Positions 57,466-62,869 of a stretch of 64,000 bases of DNA are shown piece after piece. This DNA is from Escherichia phage WPEC4. How positions within the stretch are numbered: the stretch's first letter is position 1; each line of letters begins with the position of its first letter. A program made the translations under genes and the position numbers. Under the pieces are notes generated by a model. That model ran no database searches, had not been told where the DNA came from, and saw only the letters and a list, made by a program, of their open reading frames with translations. The stretch is taken from the sequence record PV682947.1; one strand, 5' to 3'.

Positions 57466-57611
57466 ATTTTATCCTCCTCATATCTGATCTTATCACAAAA
57501 TGATATACAATTGCAAGCATCCGCCGTTGCATCAGTTGGCGTGCTGTTTTACGTTGGTAAACGCTATTTATCACCAATGATTAACAAGCTGACACCGTGG
57601 AAAAATAAAGG

Positions 57612-57666
57612 TTGATCCCGTTTTATATTGTGTTATAGTTATTGTGTAGGGCGGCAATGGTGCCGC
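57612..57666 (+). promoter_or_regulatory. Early promoter (TTGATC 57612-57617, TATAGT 57634-57639) plus 5' hairpin 21-mer GTAGGGCGGCAATGGTGCCGC at 57646-57666
   Basis: First exact copy of the 21-mer; stem GCGGCA/TGCCGC around loop ATGG. Confidence 0.55.
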
Positions 57667-57686
57667 GCCCCTTTGAGGATGAAACC

Positions 57687-57971
57687 ATGAGTAAAGCTAA
57701 CACCGTGCTAATGTTTTCCCTGGTTAATGATGCCGCTTACTTGTCCAACATGACGCAAGATGATAGCACATTAACGGCAACATTTACCGATGGACTCAAC
57801 AGAGTGATCATCGTATCATTGAAAACGATTAGTAAAGGCTTTTACTCGTTGGCTTATCATTGGGTAACAGACAGCGACGAGACAAGCCAGGACTATAGCG
57901 CCCCGTTCCCTGAATCAATGGCACGGGAGATCATCGCCGCCGTTGTAAATGATGGTTTGTTTACTGCATAA
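57687..57971 (+). CDS. hypothetical early protein (94 aa)
   Basis: ATG after GAGGATGAAACC, in frame of track ORF 57642..57971. Confidence 0.5.
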   Translation: MSKANTVLMFSLVNDAAYLSNMTQDDSTLTATFTDGLNRVIIVSLKTISKGFYSLAYHWVTDSDETSQDYSAPFPESMAREIIAAVVNDGLFTA

Positions 57972-57989
57972 AATAATTTAGAAAAAGGC

Positions 57990-58050
57990 TTGCAATCGTT
58001 TTGAGATAGTGTATATTTAATTCATAGGGCGGCGGGAATAGTTCCCAAGG
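57990..58050 (+). promoter_or_regulatory. Early promoter (TTGCAA 57990-57995, TATATT 58012-58017) plus GC-rich hairpin 58027-58050
   Basis: Variant hairpin GGGCGGCGGGAATAGTTCCC. Confidence 0.45.
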
Positions 58051-58069
58051 CAAACGAGAGGATTACACG

Positions 58070-58189
58070 ATGAGCAAGTACACAGTAGAATACACGGTAG
58101 AAAATCCGGCAGTATCCGAAGGTAAAAAGATGACATTTGCCATCAGTATAATCGCTTTCGTTGTCACTATCTTATCAATCATCTTATAA
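58070..58189 (+). CDS. small membrane peptide (39 aa)
   Basis: Hand-translated; GAGAGGA ribosome-binding site; C-terminal hydrophobic segment MTFAISIIAFVVTILSIIL. Confidence 0.4.
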   Translation: MSKYTVEYTVENPAVSEGKKMTFAISIIAFVVTILSIIL

Positions 58190-58199
58190 GGTGCATACC

Positions 58200-58361
58200 A
58201 TGAAAACAGCAGACATTATCAAAGAGATCGCCCTTGCCGCTGACGTTGAAATCGAGGAAATGATCGCGCTCAATCTTACAGAAAACGATCTGCGCAACTA
58301 TGAAGCGGAAAGCGTGAAAGCAAGCGGCGCGGTCCTGGCATATAATCCAGCTAACAAATAA
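58200..58361 (+). CDS. hypothetical small protein (53 aa)
   Basis: ATG at 58200 in frame of track ORF 58161..58361. Confidence 0.4.
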   Translation: MKTADIIKEIALAADVEIEEMIALNLTENDLRNYEAESVKASGAVLAYNPANK

Positions 58362-58362
58362 T

Positions 58363-58417
58363 TTGACAAGCTGAATCAACCTGATAAGATGTATCCCGTA
58401 GGGGCGACAAGCGCCCC
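58363..58417 (+). promoter_or_regulatory. Early promoter (TTGACA 58363-58368, TAAGAT 58385-58390) plus hairpin GGGGCG-ACAA-GCGCCCC
   Basis: 16-nt spacer; hairpin about 10 nt after the -10 box. Confidence 0.55.
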
Positions 58418-58438
58418 GCCTAACAGAGAGATGAAATC

Positions 58439-58717
58439 ATGACCATCGTTAAATTAACAACCGAAGAAATGAAAACAATGTTAACCACTAATTTACAAAA
58501 TTGGAAAATTGGTGTTGACGTTGAAACAGTGTGCAAGTTGAACGACAAACTAACACCAGACGACATTGCAACGATCATTGATGCTAATTTCTATGATGTT
58601 TTACATGATGATTCCATTAGTTTTGAAATAGTGTTAGATAACACTTGGATCGATCCTGGTTTGTCGGTTTATGGTCGGCTTGCTTTCGATGCAATCCACA
58701 ATGTTTATAATCGTTAA
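58439..58717 (+). CDS. hypothetical early protein (92 aa)
   Basis: ORF track; promoter and hairpin upstream. Confidence 0.55.
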   Translation: MTIVKLTTEEMKTMLTTNLQNWKIGVDVETVCKLNDKLTPDDIATIIDANFYDVLHDDSISFEIVLDNTWIDPGLSVYGRLAFDAIHNVYNR

Positions 58718-58726
58718 GGGGATAGT

Positions 58727-58837
58727 ATGAATCCTAGAGATATGCAATCTTGGAAAGGGTACGACGATCTAAGCGCCTTGCGCAATAAATCAAGCCGTAA
58801 CCTTAGACGGTTGGAAGCAAAGAAAAAGAAAAAATAG
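58727..58837 (+). CDS. small basic protein with Lys-rich C-terminus (36 aa)
   Basis: Hand-translated; AAGGGGA ribosome-binding site. Confidence 0.35.
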   Translation: MNPRDMQSWKGYDDLSALRNKSSRNLRRLEAKKKKK

Positions 58838-58838
58838 T

Positions 58839-58894
58839 TTGACAAGCCTGTTTAATCTGGTAATATTCATCTTGTAGGGCGGCAATGGTGCCGC
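58839..58894 (+). promoter_or_regulatory. Early promoter (TTGACA 58839-58844, TAATAT 58861-58866) plus 21-mer hairpin at 58874-58894
   Basis: Second exact copy of GTAGGGCGGCAATGGTGCCGC. Confidence 0.6.
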
Positions 58895-58916
58895 TCACAA
58901 GAAGAGAGAAAACATT

Positions 58917-61087: not shown

Positions 61088-61095
61088 TCAACAAA

Positions 61096-61111
61096 GGGGC
61101 GGTAACGCCCC
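61096..61111 (+). repeat. GC-rich hairpin GGGGCG-GTAA-CGCCCC
   Basis: Perfect 6-bp stem in an intergenic 5' leader. Confidence 0.5.
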
Positions 61112-61132
61112 CACATCAGAAAGGGAAAGATT

Positions 61133-61369
61133 ATGAGTATTGCTACAGTATTAGCCGCCGTTAAAACCGCTGAATCATCCAGCTTGCATGTCGAGCTTAT
61201 AGATCAACCAGGTGGCGATCTACTTGTCCAAGTTTACCCGCCGAAAGTAGGTGATGATTATTATTGGTGTTATTCTGATACGTTCGAACAAGTAGACACG
61301 AAAGCGATCACCGCCTTTATTTTAAAAGCCATTGAAGAAAATAACTTTCATCATAACATCAATCAATAA
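61133..61369 (+). CDS. hypothetical early protein (78 aa)
   Basis: ORF track. Confidence 0.5.
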   Translation: MSIATVLAAVKTAESSSLHVELIDQPGGDLLVQVYPPKVGDDYYWCYSDTFEQVDTKAITAFILKAIEENNFHHNINQ

Positions 61370-61377
61370 CCATAAGC

Positions 61378-61393
61378 GGGGCCGTAACGCCCC
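61378..61393 (+). repeat. GC-rich hairpin GGGGC-CGTAAC-GCCCC
   Basis: Near copy of the 61096 hairpin. Confidence 0.5.
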
Positions 61394-61423
61394 ATTAAAC
61401 ACAATAGGAAGAGGATAGACAGC

Positions 61424-61708
61424 ATGAAAAAGATGATCGCAGTAGTTGCCCTGGTTGTTGGTCTTAACGCGCCTGTACTGGCTAATGAGTTGCCGGAATC
61501 CATCACGCTAACAGATATCCAAGCCGTCAACCGGATCGGCGTTAACTATCGCCTATGCCTTGCCGCTAAAACTTTCCAGGATGGCGAGATAGAATATCAC
61601 GGATTCGAGGGTATCCGGTGCGGTGAGCTTGCACGCGACCTTAAGGAAGATCCAGACCTTAAAGCCATACCGATGACCGTAAACGGTAAAGCCTACGTAA
61701 GCCGCTAA
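61424..61708 (+). CDS. secreted/periplasmic small protein with signal peptide (94 aa)
   Basis: N-terminus MKKMIAVVALVVGLNAPVLA-NE; GGAAGAGGA ribosome-binding site. Confidence 0.55.
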   Translation: MKKMIAVVALVVGLNAPVLANELPESITLTDIQAVNRIGVNYRLCLAAKTFQDGEIEYHGFEGIRCGELARDLKEDPDLKAIPMTVNGKAYVSR

Positions 61709-61709
61709 C

Positions 61710-61844
61710 ATGAGAAAGGTAATCATCACCCTGGGGATCATAGTAGCAACGCTGGCGCTTATCCCTTTCATGGTTGAATACGTGCTAATCAGTGTTGTCC
61801 TGGTAGTCAGTGACCTACTGGAAACGGTTGGCAACTTGTTTTAA
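61710..61844 (+). CDS. small hydrophobic membrane peptide (44 aa)
   Basis: Hand-translated MRKVIITLGIIVATLALIPFMVEYVLISVVLVVSDLLETVGNLF. Confidence 0.4.
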   Translation: MRKVIITLGIIVATLALIPFMVEYVLISVVLVVSDLLETVGNLF

Positions 61845-61855
61845 GGAGTGATAAA

Positions 61856-62047
61856 ATGAATACAGAACAAGTTAGAAAGGTATTAGCAGCGTTACGCTAT
61901 CATAACCATAGCAAGGTGAAGAATGATCCTGATTATGTTGATTCAAGCCTGGAAGAAGACACATTGCAAGCTATAAGCCATATGCAAGAATTGTTTAAGC
62001 GTATGACAGAGAAGAACAGATCTGATTATATAGGTGACGAGATCTAA
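61856..62047 (+). CDS. hypothetical early protein (63 aa)
   Basis: ORF track; AAGGAG ribosome-binding site. Confidence 0.5.
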   Translation: MNTEQVRKVLAALRYHNHSKVKNDPDYVDSSLEEDTLQAISHMQELFKRMTEKNRSDYIGDEI

Positions 62048-62054
62048 TCTTTAC

Positions 62055-62086
62055 AAAAACAGGGCTTGCTTTTGTCCTGTTTTTTG
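62055..62086 (+). terminator. Putative intrinsic terminator
   Basis: ACAGG...CCTGT imperfect hairpin followed by TTTTT. Confidence 0.45.
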
Positions 62087-62301
62087 TTATGCTTATTGAA
62101 CGGGCGGCACTGGCAACAGGGGAGGTAATCACCGGAAGACCCCGCTATATATCGATAGCTAACACCTATCAAACAACAAAACATCAAAGAAATAAACTAT
62201 CAAATCTTTACAATCCCACCTATTGACACCGGATCACCCTTCTATTATTATTTATCACGTAGGGCAAACAAATCATTTTAAACGGTAAACGAGGAATCAC
62301 C

Positions 62302-62685
62302 ATGAGCAATATCATCAACCTGGCAGCTAGTGTAAACGGTAAGGATTTTAACGGCGCTGTAGATCGTGATCCTATGTGGTGTTTATCAGTGTTTAAAGGT
62401 GATTTAGTTGAAGTTATGACCACCGAAGGTTATAGCGATGATTATAAATGCGAGATCCATTTACATAACTGGTACACGGGTAAAACTTATGCGCTGAATC
62501 ACGCGTTTATCGGTAAAATCGAATATTGCGAGATGATCGACGATGAAACAGGGCAAGACTTCAGCGAAAATGTTTACATCCGTTCCGAGACATTAGCCGA
62601 ACGTTTGATCGAGAAAATGAAAGTAAAAAACAAGATTGATTTATCCCGTTGGATTGATATAACAAATGATCCGGCTTATCAGTAA
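62302..62685 (+). CDS. hypothetical early protein (127 aa)
   Basis: ORF track; TTGACA promoter at 62223-62228; GAGGAATCACC ribosome-binding site. Confidence 0.55.
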   Translation: MSNIINLAASVNGKDFNGAVDRDPMWCLSVFKGDLVEVMTTEGYSDDYKCEIHLHNWYTGKTYALNHAFIGKIEYCEMIDDETGQDFSENVYIRSETLAERLIEKMKVKNKIDLSRWIDITNDPAYQ

Positions 62686-62700
62686 ATAACATTTCATACC

Positions 62701-62728
62701 AGGGCGCTTAATGCGCCCTTTCTTTTTG
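62701..62728 (+). terminator. Intrinsic terminator closing the small-gene array
   Basis: AGGGCGC-TTAAT-GCGCCCT followed by TTCTTTTT. Confidence 0.7.
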
Positions 62729-62869
62729 CCCGAACAATGTTGATAGATTCCGCCTATGAAAAACCGACACAGAACAAAATTGAATAATTCGCGGTATCGA
62801 GCTAATCAACCATCAAATGAATAACCATACCTCCCAGGATAACAGACTGTTAGAGAGCCGTTTAGAGTG

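Follow-up and report, generated by a model that had tools for sequence, protein, structure and literature searches.

Repeated promoter and stem-loop cassettes in the distal early-gene array of the Phapecoctavirus-type Escherichia phage WPEC4

The 64,000-nucleotide stretch of Escherichia phage WPEC4 analysed here (PV682947.1, hereafter the window) contains, at 57,521-62,730 on the + strand, the distal part of the early-gene array of Phapecoctavirus (phAPEC8-like coliphages), in which 19 small open reading frames (ORFs) of 34-128 aa are packed. We give a probability of roughly 60% to the reading that this region is the promoter-distal half of an immediate-early array built from cassettes resembling the promoter-early stem-loops (PeSLs) of T4-type phages (Arbiol et al. 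2010, PMC2839356; Comeau et al. 2014, PMC4122927), with the stem-loop placed in the 5' leader. A cassette runs from the upstream stop codon, set in AT-rich sequence, through a consensus -35 box and a TG-extended -10 box to a GC-rich stem-loop that opens, about 8 nt further on, with (G/A)TAGGGCGG; a purine-rich leader containing the ribosome-binding site and then the ORF complete it. Consensus -35 boxes, extended -10 boxes, AT-rich upstream sequence, short leaders and small conserved ORFs support the architecture of an early region dependent on host RNA polymerase. This architecture is real, statistically solid and conserved; it is also largely what would be expected of such phages, and is already half-annotated in GenBank.

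A consensus scan combined with the conserved downstream motif identifies nine strong sigma-70 promoters, P1 to P9 (-35 starts at 57,612, 57,990, 58,363, 58,839, 59,203, 59,642, 60,441, 60,713 and 62,223), and the best sigma-70 sites of the region in that scan are all on the + strand and all intergenic. Six have perfect TTGACA boxes, the -10 boxes are extended, the upstream sequence is AT-rich, and the -35 of P3, P4, P5, P6, P7 and P8 is preceded, at a distance of 1-6 nt, by a TAA or TAG stop. With nine promoters for 19 ORFs, the claim of a preliminary description, that every small gene has its own promoter, does not hold. Eight of the nine promoters are followed, 10-12 nt after the -10, by a GC-rich hairpin opening with (G/A)TAGGGCGG, and four of these hairpins share an identical 21-mer, GTAGGGCGGCAATGGTGCCGC (four copies versus none in 100 shuffles). 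RNA folding of the leaders gives -7.8 to -16.8 kcal/mol with the ribosome-binding site unpaired. Under strict criteria (promoter matching at least 10/12, stem of at least 6 bp, stem start 8-14 nt after the -10), a stem follows a strong promoter in 4/7 cases in the region and in 0/36 elsewhere in the window (binomial p = 6e-9), and all cassette copies of the window fall within 57.6-62.3 kb. The association of promoter and 5' hairpin that the preliminary description had proposed is thus far beyond chance, but it is not complete: P9 lacks a hairpin, and three further hairpins (H1, H2 and H3) lie 7-8 nt past a stop codon with neither a promoter nor a + strand T-run. An Rfam scan of 57,000-64,000 gave no match at E-values up to 1.

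On the + strand, intrinsic terminators with a long GC-rich stem were called at just two places, T1 and T2, both matching sites annotated as terminators in phAPEC8, so the array reads as two blocks with many internal promoters. This bears on the proposal that the stem-loops are transcription attenuators or insulators which, like those of T4-type PeSLs, damp read-through from upstream so that distal genes are not over-expressed. Such a role would agree with the finding that, in a reporter, the PeSL211/210 stem-loop was as good a terminator as rrnB T1 (PMC2839356), and the present hairpins are likewise GC-rich (-8 to -17 kcal/mol) and lie between genes. However, in silico none of the eight cassette hairpins, nor H1 to H3, has a T-run or a + strand terminator call, T1 and T2 being the only ones called, and each cassette hairpin is downstream of its own promoter, so that a strong terminator here would kill its own transcript before the gene. 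We therefore regard attenuation as unlikely.

The cassette layout recurs widely in relatives: about 21 cassettes are spread over 10 kb of ESCO25, and in the tuntematon array 22 of 35 genes have their own promoter, 19 of those 22 with a hairpin. A single cassette used as query retrieved 141 records, including phi92-like Justusliebigvirus and rV5-like Vequintavirus, and the same layout is present with different stems in Justusliebigvirus Bas62 and UAB_1 and in Vequintavirus PDX (examples from Bas62 and PDX are GGCGGGAAATGGTTTCCCGCC, GGGGCGAGATGACTTGCCCC, GGGGCAAGACGTTTGCCCC and GGGGAGCAATCCCC). In a set of 45 promoter-hairpin units, the distance from the -10 to the start of the stem is 8-14 nt, most often 12. 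The half-sites differ between copies (GGCGGCA, GGCGGGAA, GGGGCG, GGGGCAA, GGGGA), the stem varies from 4 to 9 bp or more and the loop from 3 to 6 nt, and the arms co-vary. A MAFFT alignment of 24 hairpins misaligned the 3' arms because stem and loop lengths differ, and a covariance model was for this reason dropped in favour of an arm-exchange energy test on 36 distinct hairpins. Native arms average -12.4 kcal/mol, compared with -8.7 when 3' arms are exchanged (0/2000 permutations as good), in a test that is not phylogenetically independent, as the hairpin copies are recombining paralogues. Across three genera, pairing and position are retained while sequence drifts.

How such cassettes might work can be set out as follows. 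Host sigma-70 RNA polymerase would fire the array promoters straight after infection and initiate at the conserved purine that precedes TAGGG, some 7-8 nt past the -10. As the stems start 10-12 nt after the -10, such a start leaves 1-4 unpaired nt, and the stem-loop would thus be within about 1-4 nt of the transcript 5' end. Stem-loops at the 5' terminus are known to stabilise E. coli mRNAs and to hinder RppH and 5'-end-dependent RNase E; examples are those in the 5' untranslated regions of ompA and papA. The primary work of the Belasco laboratory on such stabilisers (Emory, Bouvet and Belasco 1992) is among the references of PMC3997798. By analogy with ompA and papA, the array stem-loops may stabilise very short early mRNAs by hindering the same two enzymes while leaving the ribosome-binding site free, and the products would be accessory early proteins. 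We take this, that of a 5'-terminal mRNA stabiliser, as the most likely role at the RNA level, at slightly less than an even chance. As DNA, the 20-60 bp repeats would form patches of homology through which promoter-hairpin-ORF modules could be deleted, duplicated and swapped. Sequence comparison makes this recombination role probable, but it may simply follow from the presence of the repeats instead of having been selected for.

A further proposal gives the stem-loop with the (G/A)UAGGGCGG arm a more specific part, either as a self-mark that spares or favours phage early mRNAs during phage-triggered decay of host mRNA, or as a mark read by a phage RNA-binding protein that times the early-to-middle switch; it would double as the recombination joint of an integrase-free cassette system in at least three myovirus genera. 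T4 Srd has reportedly been found to trigger host mRNA decay by stimulating RNase E. A passage of the rV5 paper describes gp11 of that phage as a probable Srd homologue (PMC3606486). We consider this proposal rather improbable.

Comparison with relatives indicates that genes come and go at the cassettes. Alignments of twelve relatives were chained to the window and their junctions read, gene variability being scored among ten genomes of about 92% identity. About 15 distinct events of gain, loss or replacement were found, and 8/19 genes are variable among the ten close relatives, the comparison of ORF presence that the preliminary description had called for. Four events bear a footprint of repeat recombination. 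The identical 21-mers of P7 and P8 flank gene 12, and seven relatives have in its place one chimeric cassette made of the P7 promoter and the P8 leader. Three relatives lack gene 14 through a loss between H2 and H3 whose junction shows an 18-nt overlap. In Schickermooser, P6 is duplicated around an extra gene, with a 63-nt overlap. Finally, the gene 19 module is swapped between the GTAGGGC of P9 and the terminator T2, homology breaking directly after GTAGGGC; relatives with another last module have GTAGGGCGGGAATGTTTCCCGCC at the P9 hairpin spot, so that the missing hairpin of P9 is explained by a swap of the last module starting after GTAGGGC. In addition, H1 is an insertion/deletion junction in phAPEC8, ZCKP1 and TSP7_1, and the module of P3 plus gene 4 is inserted exactly between a TAA stop and the next ribosome-binding site. 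In most of the remaining events the cuts fall on, or a few bases from, stop codons, start codons or regulatory elements, the junctions at gene boundaries showing no visible homology; two events end inside genes (a ZCKP1 deletion in gene 2 and a ZCKP1/TSP7_1 deletion in gene 8).

Besides the shared ancestry of the hairpin copies, several points weigh against our reading. Raw breakpoints fall in the elements in 12/30 cases against 12% coverage of the region (p = 1e-4), an enrichment that is weak because intergenic DNA makes up about 25% of the region and the elements about half of that; since breakpoints are expected to be intergenic anyway, the case rests on the four footprints and not on this p-value. 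In the literature searched for Stephanstirmvirinae we found no transcriptome, start-site mapping, timing or half-life study, and the 5'-terminal position of the hairpin is accordingly deduced from the -10 box. If transcription began at the conserved purine, 8 nt past the -10, three nt would stay unpaired, which is borderline for protection from RppH. Some promoters of relatives, like P9 here, have no hairpin, and the hairpin is therefore not essential for expression. Lastly, stem positions with G.T and with C.A number 6 and 6 (1 and 5 in a first count) and show no strand asymmetry, so that constraint on RNA and constraint on DNA are not separated by this count.

The absence of an RNA-strand bias is what would be seen if the palindromes acted as DNA, whether as operators for an early shut-off protein of phage or host or as cruciform targets for a recombination enzyme. 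They are indeed near-perfect inverted repeats centred about +10 to +15 from the predicted start, a classic roadblock position, and their 5' half, (G/A)TAGGGCGG, is well conserved. Against this, half-site sequence and the lengths of stem and loop vary while the arms co-vary, a pattern that fits selection for pairing and not for the recognition sequence of one protein, and no candidate regulator was identified among the array products in PHROGs, Pfam or NCBIfam. A DNA-level role is in our view very unlikely. The hairpin could instead be a passenger without a function of its own, carried along by a promoter cassette that duplication and gene conversion have multiplied, its constant position reflecting common descent. 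That four copies are identical over 21 nt, that cassettes recombine, and that active-looking promoters exist with no hairpin (P9; 3/22 in tuntematon) would all fit; but a neutral passenger is expected to decay, whereas three genera with widely diverged stems retain the pairing, the GC-richness and the offset from the -10. We judge the passenger account unlikely, and continue to favour PeSL-like cassettes with the stem-loop in the leader.

The coding status of the ORFs is supported, with two reservations. Seventeen of the 19 ORFs are under purifying selection, substitutions relative to orthologues in relatives falling mainly at third codon positions, and the approximate ratio of nonsynonymous to synonymous substitution rates (dN/dS) is 0-0.34 for genes that align gap-free. 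This agrees with the conservation and coding signal in relatives on which the preliminary description had staked its view. The first reservation is the ORF at 62,089-62,226, which has no PHROG match and no third-position bias and is gapped in most relatives; lacking a coding signature, and with insertions or deletions in most relatives, it is probably non-coding spacer. The second is gene 10, in which an A5 run at 59,984-59,988 replaces the A6 of relatives. This 1-nt deletion reduces the product to 53 aa from 71 aa and creates a 49-nt gap before gene 11, whereas in relatives ATGA is shared by both genes; either a sequencing error in the homopolymer or a genuine pseudogene could account for it. 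The dense run of about 18 small + strand genes of 34-128 aa described previously is therefore present, as 19 ORFs, but one of these is frameshifted and one is probably non-coding.

The products are largely uncharacterised, as had been supposed. Seventeen of the 19 ORFs match PHROG families, 16 of unknown function and one labelled only 'membrane protein' (moron/host-takeover category). NCBIfam and Protein Data Bank (PDB) sequence searches with the array proteins gave no match, and a single ORF, gene 19, reaches a Pfam gathering score (Phage_30_8, a family of unknown function; it scores 94.7 bits where the cut-off is 25 and aligns to positions 2-123 of the 124 in the profile). This gene belongs to an alternative module common to ZCKP1, TSP7_1, ukendt and Justusliebigvirus. 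Gene 12 was detected, among the relatives compared, only in Schickermooser, ZCKP1 and SKA64. The composition of the products is as first described: 12/19 have an isoelectric point (pI) of 5.0 or below, three are short hydrophobic peptides (58,070, 59,722 and 61,710, with grand average of hydropathy, GRAVY, of 0.87, 1.49 and 1.78, respectively), and the 61,424 product has a signal-peptide-like N-terminus (MKKMIAVVALVVGLNAPVLA/NE). Gene 11 belongs to a broad family for which the search output gave neither a Pfam annotation nor an informative name; the only protein modelled, it gave a confident helical model (predicted local distance difference test, pLDDT, 96.5) with no match for its 128 aa among solved structures. 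Across PHROGs, NCBIfam, Pfam and PDB no homology to any characterised protein was found among the array products, and nothing, the gene 11 model included, links any of them to the host-takeover or anti-defence role suggested earlier. Coordinates are collected in Table 1.

Table 1. Genes, cassettes, hairpins and terminators of the array (positions in the window).
Feature	Position	Strand	Description
Gene 1	57687..57971	+	94 aa, acidic, pI 4.3, phrog_10737, unknown function, dN/dS 0.23-0.31
Gene 2	58070..58189	+	39-aa hydrophobic peptide, phrog_10979 ('membrane protein')
Gene 3	58200..58361	+	53 aa, acidic, phrog_35944
Gene 4	58439..58717	+	92 aa, acidic, phrog_14947; missing with P3 in four relatives
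Gene 5	58727..58837	+	36 aa, very basic, pI 10.7, phrog_31652
Gene 6	58917..59201	+	94 aa, phrog_6147, conserved into Justusliebigvirus, dN/dS 0.03-0.08
Gene 7	59286..59456	+	56 aa, acidic, phrog_20874
Gene 8	59501..59638	+	45 aa, phrog_29854; missing or replaced in seven relatives
Gene 9	59722..59826	+	34-aa hydrophobic peptide, phrog_14631
Gene 10	59837..59998	+	53 aa, phrog_5988, frameshifted
Gene 11	60048..60434	+	128 aa, charge -15, phrog_1915, invariant FTRNGHGVGFWDR motif
Gene 12	60518..60709	+	63 aa, acidic, no PHROG, flanked by P7 and P8
Gene 13	60788..61087	+	99 aa, acidic, phrog_22684
Gene 14	61133..61369	+	78 aa, acidic, phrog_20600
Gene 15	61424..61708	+	94 aa, signal-peptide-like N-terminus, phrog_9845
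Gene 16	61710..61844	+	44-aa hydrophobic peptide, phrog_16005
Gene 17	61856..62047	+	63 aa, phrog_9599; missing in three relatives
ORF	62089..62226	+	45 aa, between T1 and P9; probably non-coding
Gene 19	62302..62685	+	127 aa, Pfam PF06019 Phage_30_8 (T4 gp30.8 family)
Cassette P1	57612..57669	+	-35 TTGATC, 16 nt, TG-extended -10 TATAGT, GTAGGGCGGCAATGGTGCCGC hairpin
Cassette P2	57990..58051	+	TTGCAA/TATATT, ATAGGGCGGCGGGAATAGTTCCC hairpin, weakest at -7.8 kcal/mol
Cassette P3	58363..58417	+	TTGACA/TAAGAT, GTAGGGGCGACAAGCGCCCC hairpin
Cassette P4	58839..58896	+	TTGACA/TAATAT, 21-mer hairpin, z = -4.7
Cassette P5	59203..59263	+	TTGACA/TAAAGT, ATAAGGCGGGAAGTGGTTTCCCGCT hairpin
Cassette P6	59642..59703	+	TTGACA/TAGAAT, GTAGGGCGGGGCAATAAGGCAACGCCC hairpin, z = -4.6
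Cassette P7	60441..60498	+	TTGACA/TAATAT, 21-mer hairpin
Cassette P8	60713..60769	+	TTGATC/TATATT, 21-mer hairpin
P9	62223..62265	+	TTGACA/TATTAT, GTAGGGC present, no hairpin
H1	59463..59482	+	promoterless intercistronic hairpin (family D7), 7 nt after stop
H2	61095..61112	+	promoterless intercistronic hairpin GGGGCGGTAACGCCCC
H3	61377..61394	+	promoterless intercistronic hairpin GGGGCCGTAACGCCCC
T1	62055..62084	+	intrinsic terminator, 11-bp stem and T-run, ends first transcription block
T2	62701..62719	+	intrinsic terminator, ends array

The array belongs to a well-sampled family of coliphages of about 150 kb. A megablast search with 57,400-62,900 matched 250 phage records, the best full-length matches being Phapecoctavirus (Stephanstirmvirinae) at 92-94% identity (phAPEC8, ESCO25, ESCO37, tuntematon, Schickermooser, ZCKP1 and others). 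Between 9 and 19 records named 'Campylobacter phage' (e.g. A110a and A141; 140-146 kb) also match the family, cassette included, and look like mislabelled or contaminant entries. In relatives the array extends upstream by about 16 further genes, and the native array of tuntematon has 35, of which the window shows only about half. Upstream of the array in the window the minus strand carries the large terminase and Rz-like spanin genes. Downstream (62,760-64,000) lies about 1.2 kb of AT-rich DNA in which both strands have ORFs, all of them short. The right-end direct terminal repeat of Salmonella phage UAB_1 is annotated about 1.1 kb past the array, which suggests that array transcription runs towards the physical end of the genome, and the downstream segment may hold the genome terminus or packaging signals. 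The same segment contains short CAACAA-type repeats and several inverted repeats and is 93-96% conserved in relatives; an equivalent of the UAB_1 repeat can be placed near 63,670 by eye, with no support from BLAST.

Cassette-like sequences were also seen beyond the array. At 10,930-11,010 (+) a lone TTGACA-N17-TATAGT is followed 14 nt later by a TAGGGTAGTGCTGCCTTACTCAAGGCAG hairpin (-14 kcal/mol), and this element, which lies in the + strand block of 1-22 kb, may be a cassette that has diverged. An IMG/VR scan for the 20-mer TAGGGCGGCAATGGTGCCGC found exact copies in contigs of about 97-153 kb, there in the same cassette context, and in three GC-rich phage or prophage contigs (L018, L019 and L025; 36-61 kb), which have it in shared flanking sequence. 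We rejected the L025 occurrence as a cassette: the hairpin follows the TAG stop of a tape-measure-like gene and has no sigma-70 context, and we judge it a chance resemblance.

The left edge of the array needs separate comment. At 57,520/57,521 the array is cut inside the phAPEC8_002 homologue, producing a chimeric ORF at 57,418-57,615. Homology to every non-WPEC relative searched breaks at this point and again at 2,782/2,783, and the blocks joined at these two junctions are non-adjacent in all 73-128 related records searched. In relatives the tRNA block follows the terminase block; in the window it sits inverted at 1-2,782. Blockwise identity of 100% to the window is confined to the WPEC1, WPEC2 and WPEC6 records, whose arrangements differ from one another: the coordinates of WPEC2 are inconsistent too, and WPEC6 breaks at the same base as the window (57,520/57,521) and has a fold-back-like junction, W58,899|rc(W57,520) (window position 58,899 joined to the reverse complement of 57,520), directly after the P4 hairpin. 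As the 57,520/57,521 junction is missing from all non-WPEC relatives and the WPEC records are rearranged, the left array edge is most likely an assembly artefact; the junction at 2,782/2,783 is probably one also. The annotation of WPEC1 includes several minus-strand coding sequences of 30-50 aa inside and after the array, which are probably spurious, as the codon-position pattern supports only + strand genes.

If the proposed mechanism is true, PeSL-type cassettes are not peculiar to T4-type phages, and large lytic phages would have, by convergence or in common, a means of expressing and shuffling accessory early genes; in the present version a stem-loop placed in the mRNA could set transcript stability. 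The cassettes mark the exact boundaries of exchangeable early-gene modules, and the 8/19 genes that vary between near-identical phages constitute a natural presence/absence panel for assigning functions to early proteins, in a phage group widely isolated for therapy and biocontrol work. In the literature searched we found no screen of accessory early genes covering these phages.

Comparison with known systems places the cassettes among several partial precedents. Closest in lineage are the promoter clusters of other members of the same phage supergroup. The passages on promoters give rV5 33 sigma-70 promoters, concentrated among short hypothetical ORFs taken as early (PMC3606486), and Certrevirus CB7, CR3, CR8 and CR9 sigma-70 promoters clustered among short hypothetical early ORFs (PMC7344957); these passages describe promoters only, with no transcribed stem-loop. 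In the phAPEC8 record (JX561091) four features, 'putative promoter determined with PHIRE', are the hairpin 20-mer itself, and the true -35 and -10 next to one of them are annotated separately, from MEME. In these annotations, then, the hairpin is labelled a promoter and not a transcribed stem-loop, and they note no link to insertion/deletion junctions. The preliminary description missed this PHIRE annotation, as it did the family identity, the coincidence of cassettes with junctions, and the fact that only half of the array is shown.

The lambdoid morons share with the array autonomous modules of promoter plus small gene set between existing genes, P3 with gene 4 being an example; unlike morons, the array modules have no terminator each, stand in tandem, and belong to a lytic phage, not being expressed from a prophage. 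With the ompA and papA stabilisers the array has in common a stable hairpin a few nt from the 5' end (here a predicted one), a variable stem and a free ribosome-binding site. It differs in that up to three unpaired 5' nt are possible and in that there are about 20 copies per phage genome rather than a single mRNA.

The PeSLs remain the nearest counterpart. Both systems combine an upstream stop in AT-rich DNA, a sigma-70 promoter, a GC-rich stem-loop, a Shine-Dalgarno sequence and a small ORFan; both are present in many copies in a hyperplastic region of non-essential early genes, and in both the insertion/deletion and replacement junctions of close relatives fall inside cassettes. In the literature searched PeSLs are discussed only for T4-type phages and cyanophages, whereas the array lineage is Stephanstirmvirinae/Vequintavirinae. 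PeSL stem-loops, of five positional subclasses, lie mostly between or over the -35 and -10, whereas those of the array are 8-14 nt downstream of the -10 and transcribed, a position that resembles only the rarest PeSL subclass, downstream of the -10. One PeSL stem-loop has been shown to terminate; the array hairpins, judged in silico only, have no T-run, and unlike PeSLs they have a conserved (G/A)TAGGGCGG 5' arm. The array cassettes are thus a variant close to the PeSLs, and not members of the PeSL family in the strict sense.

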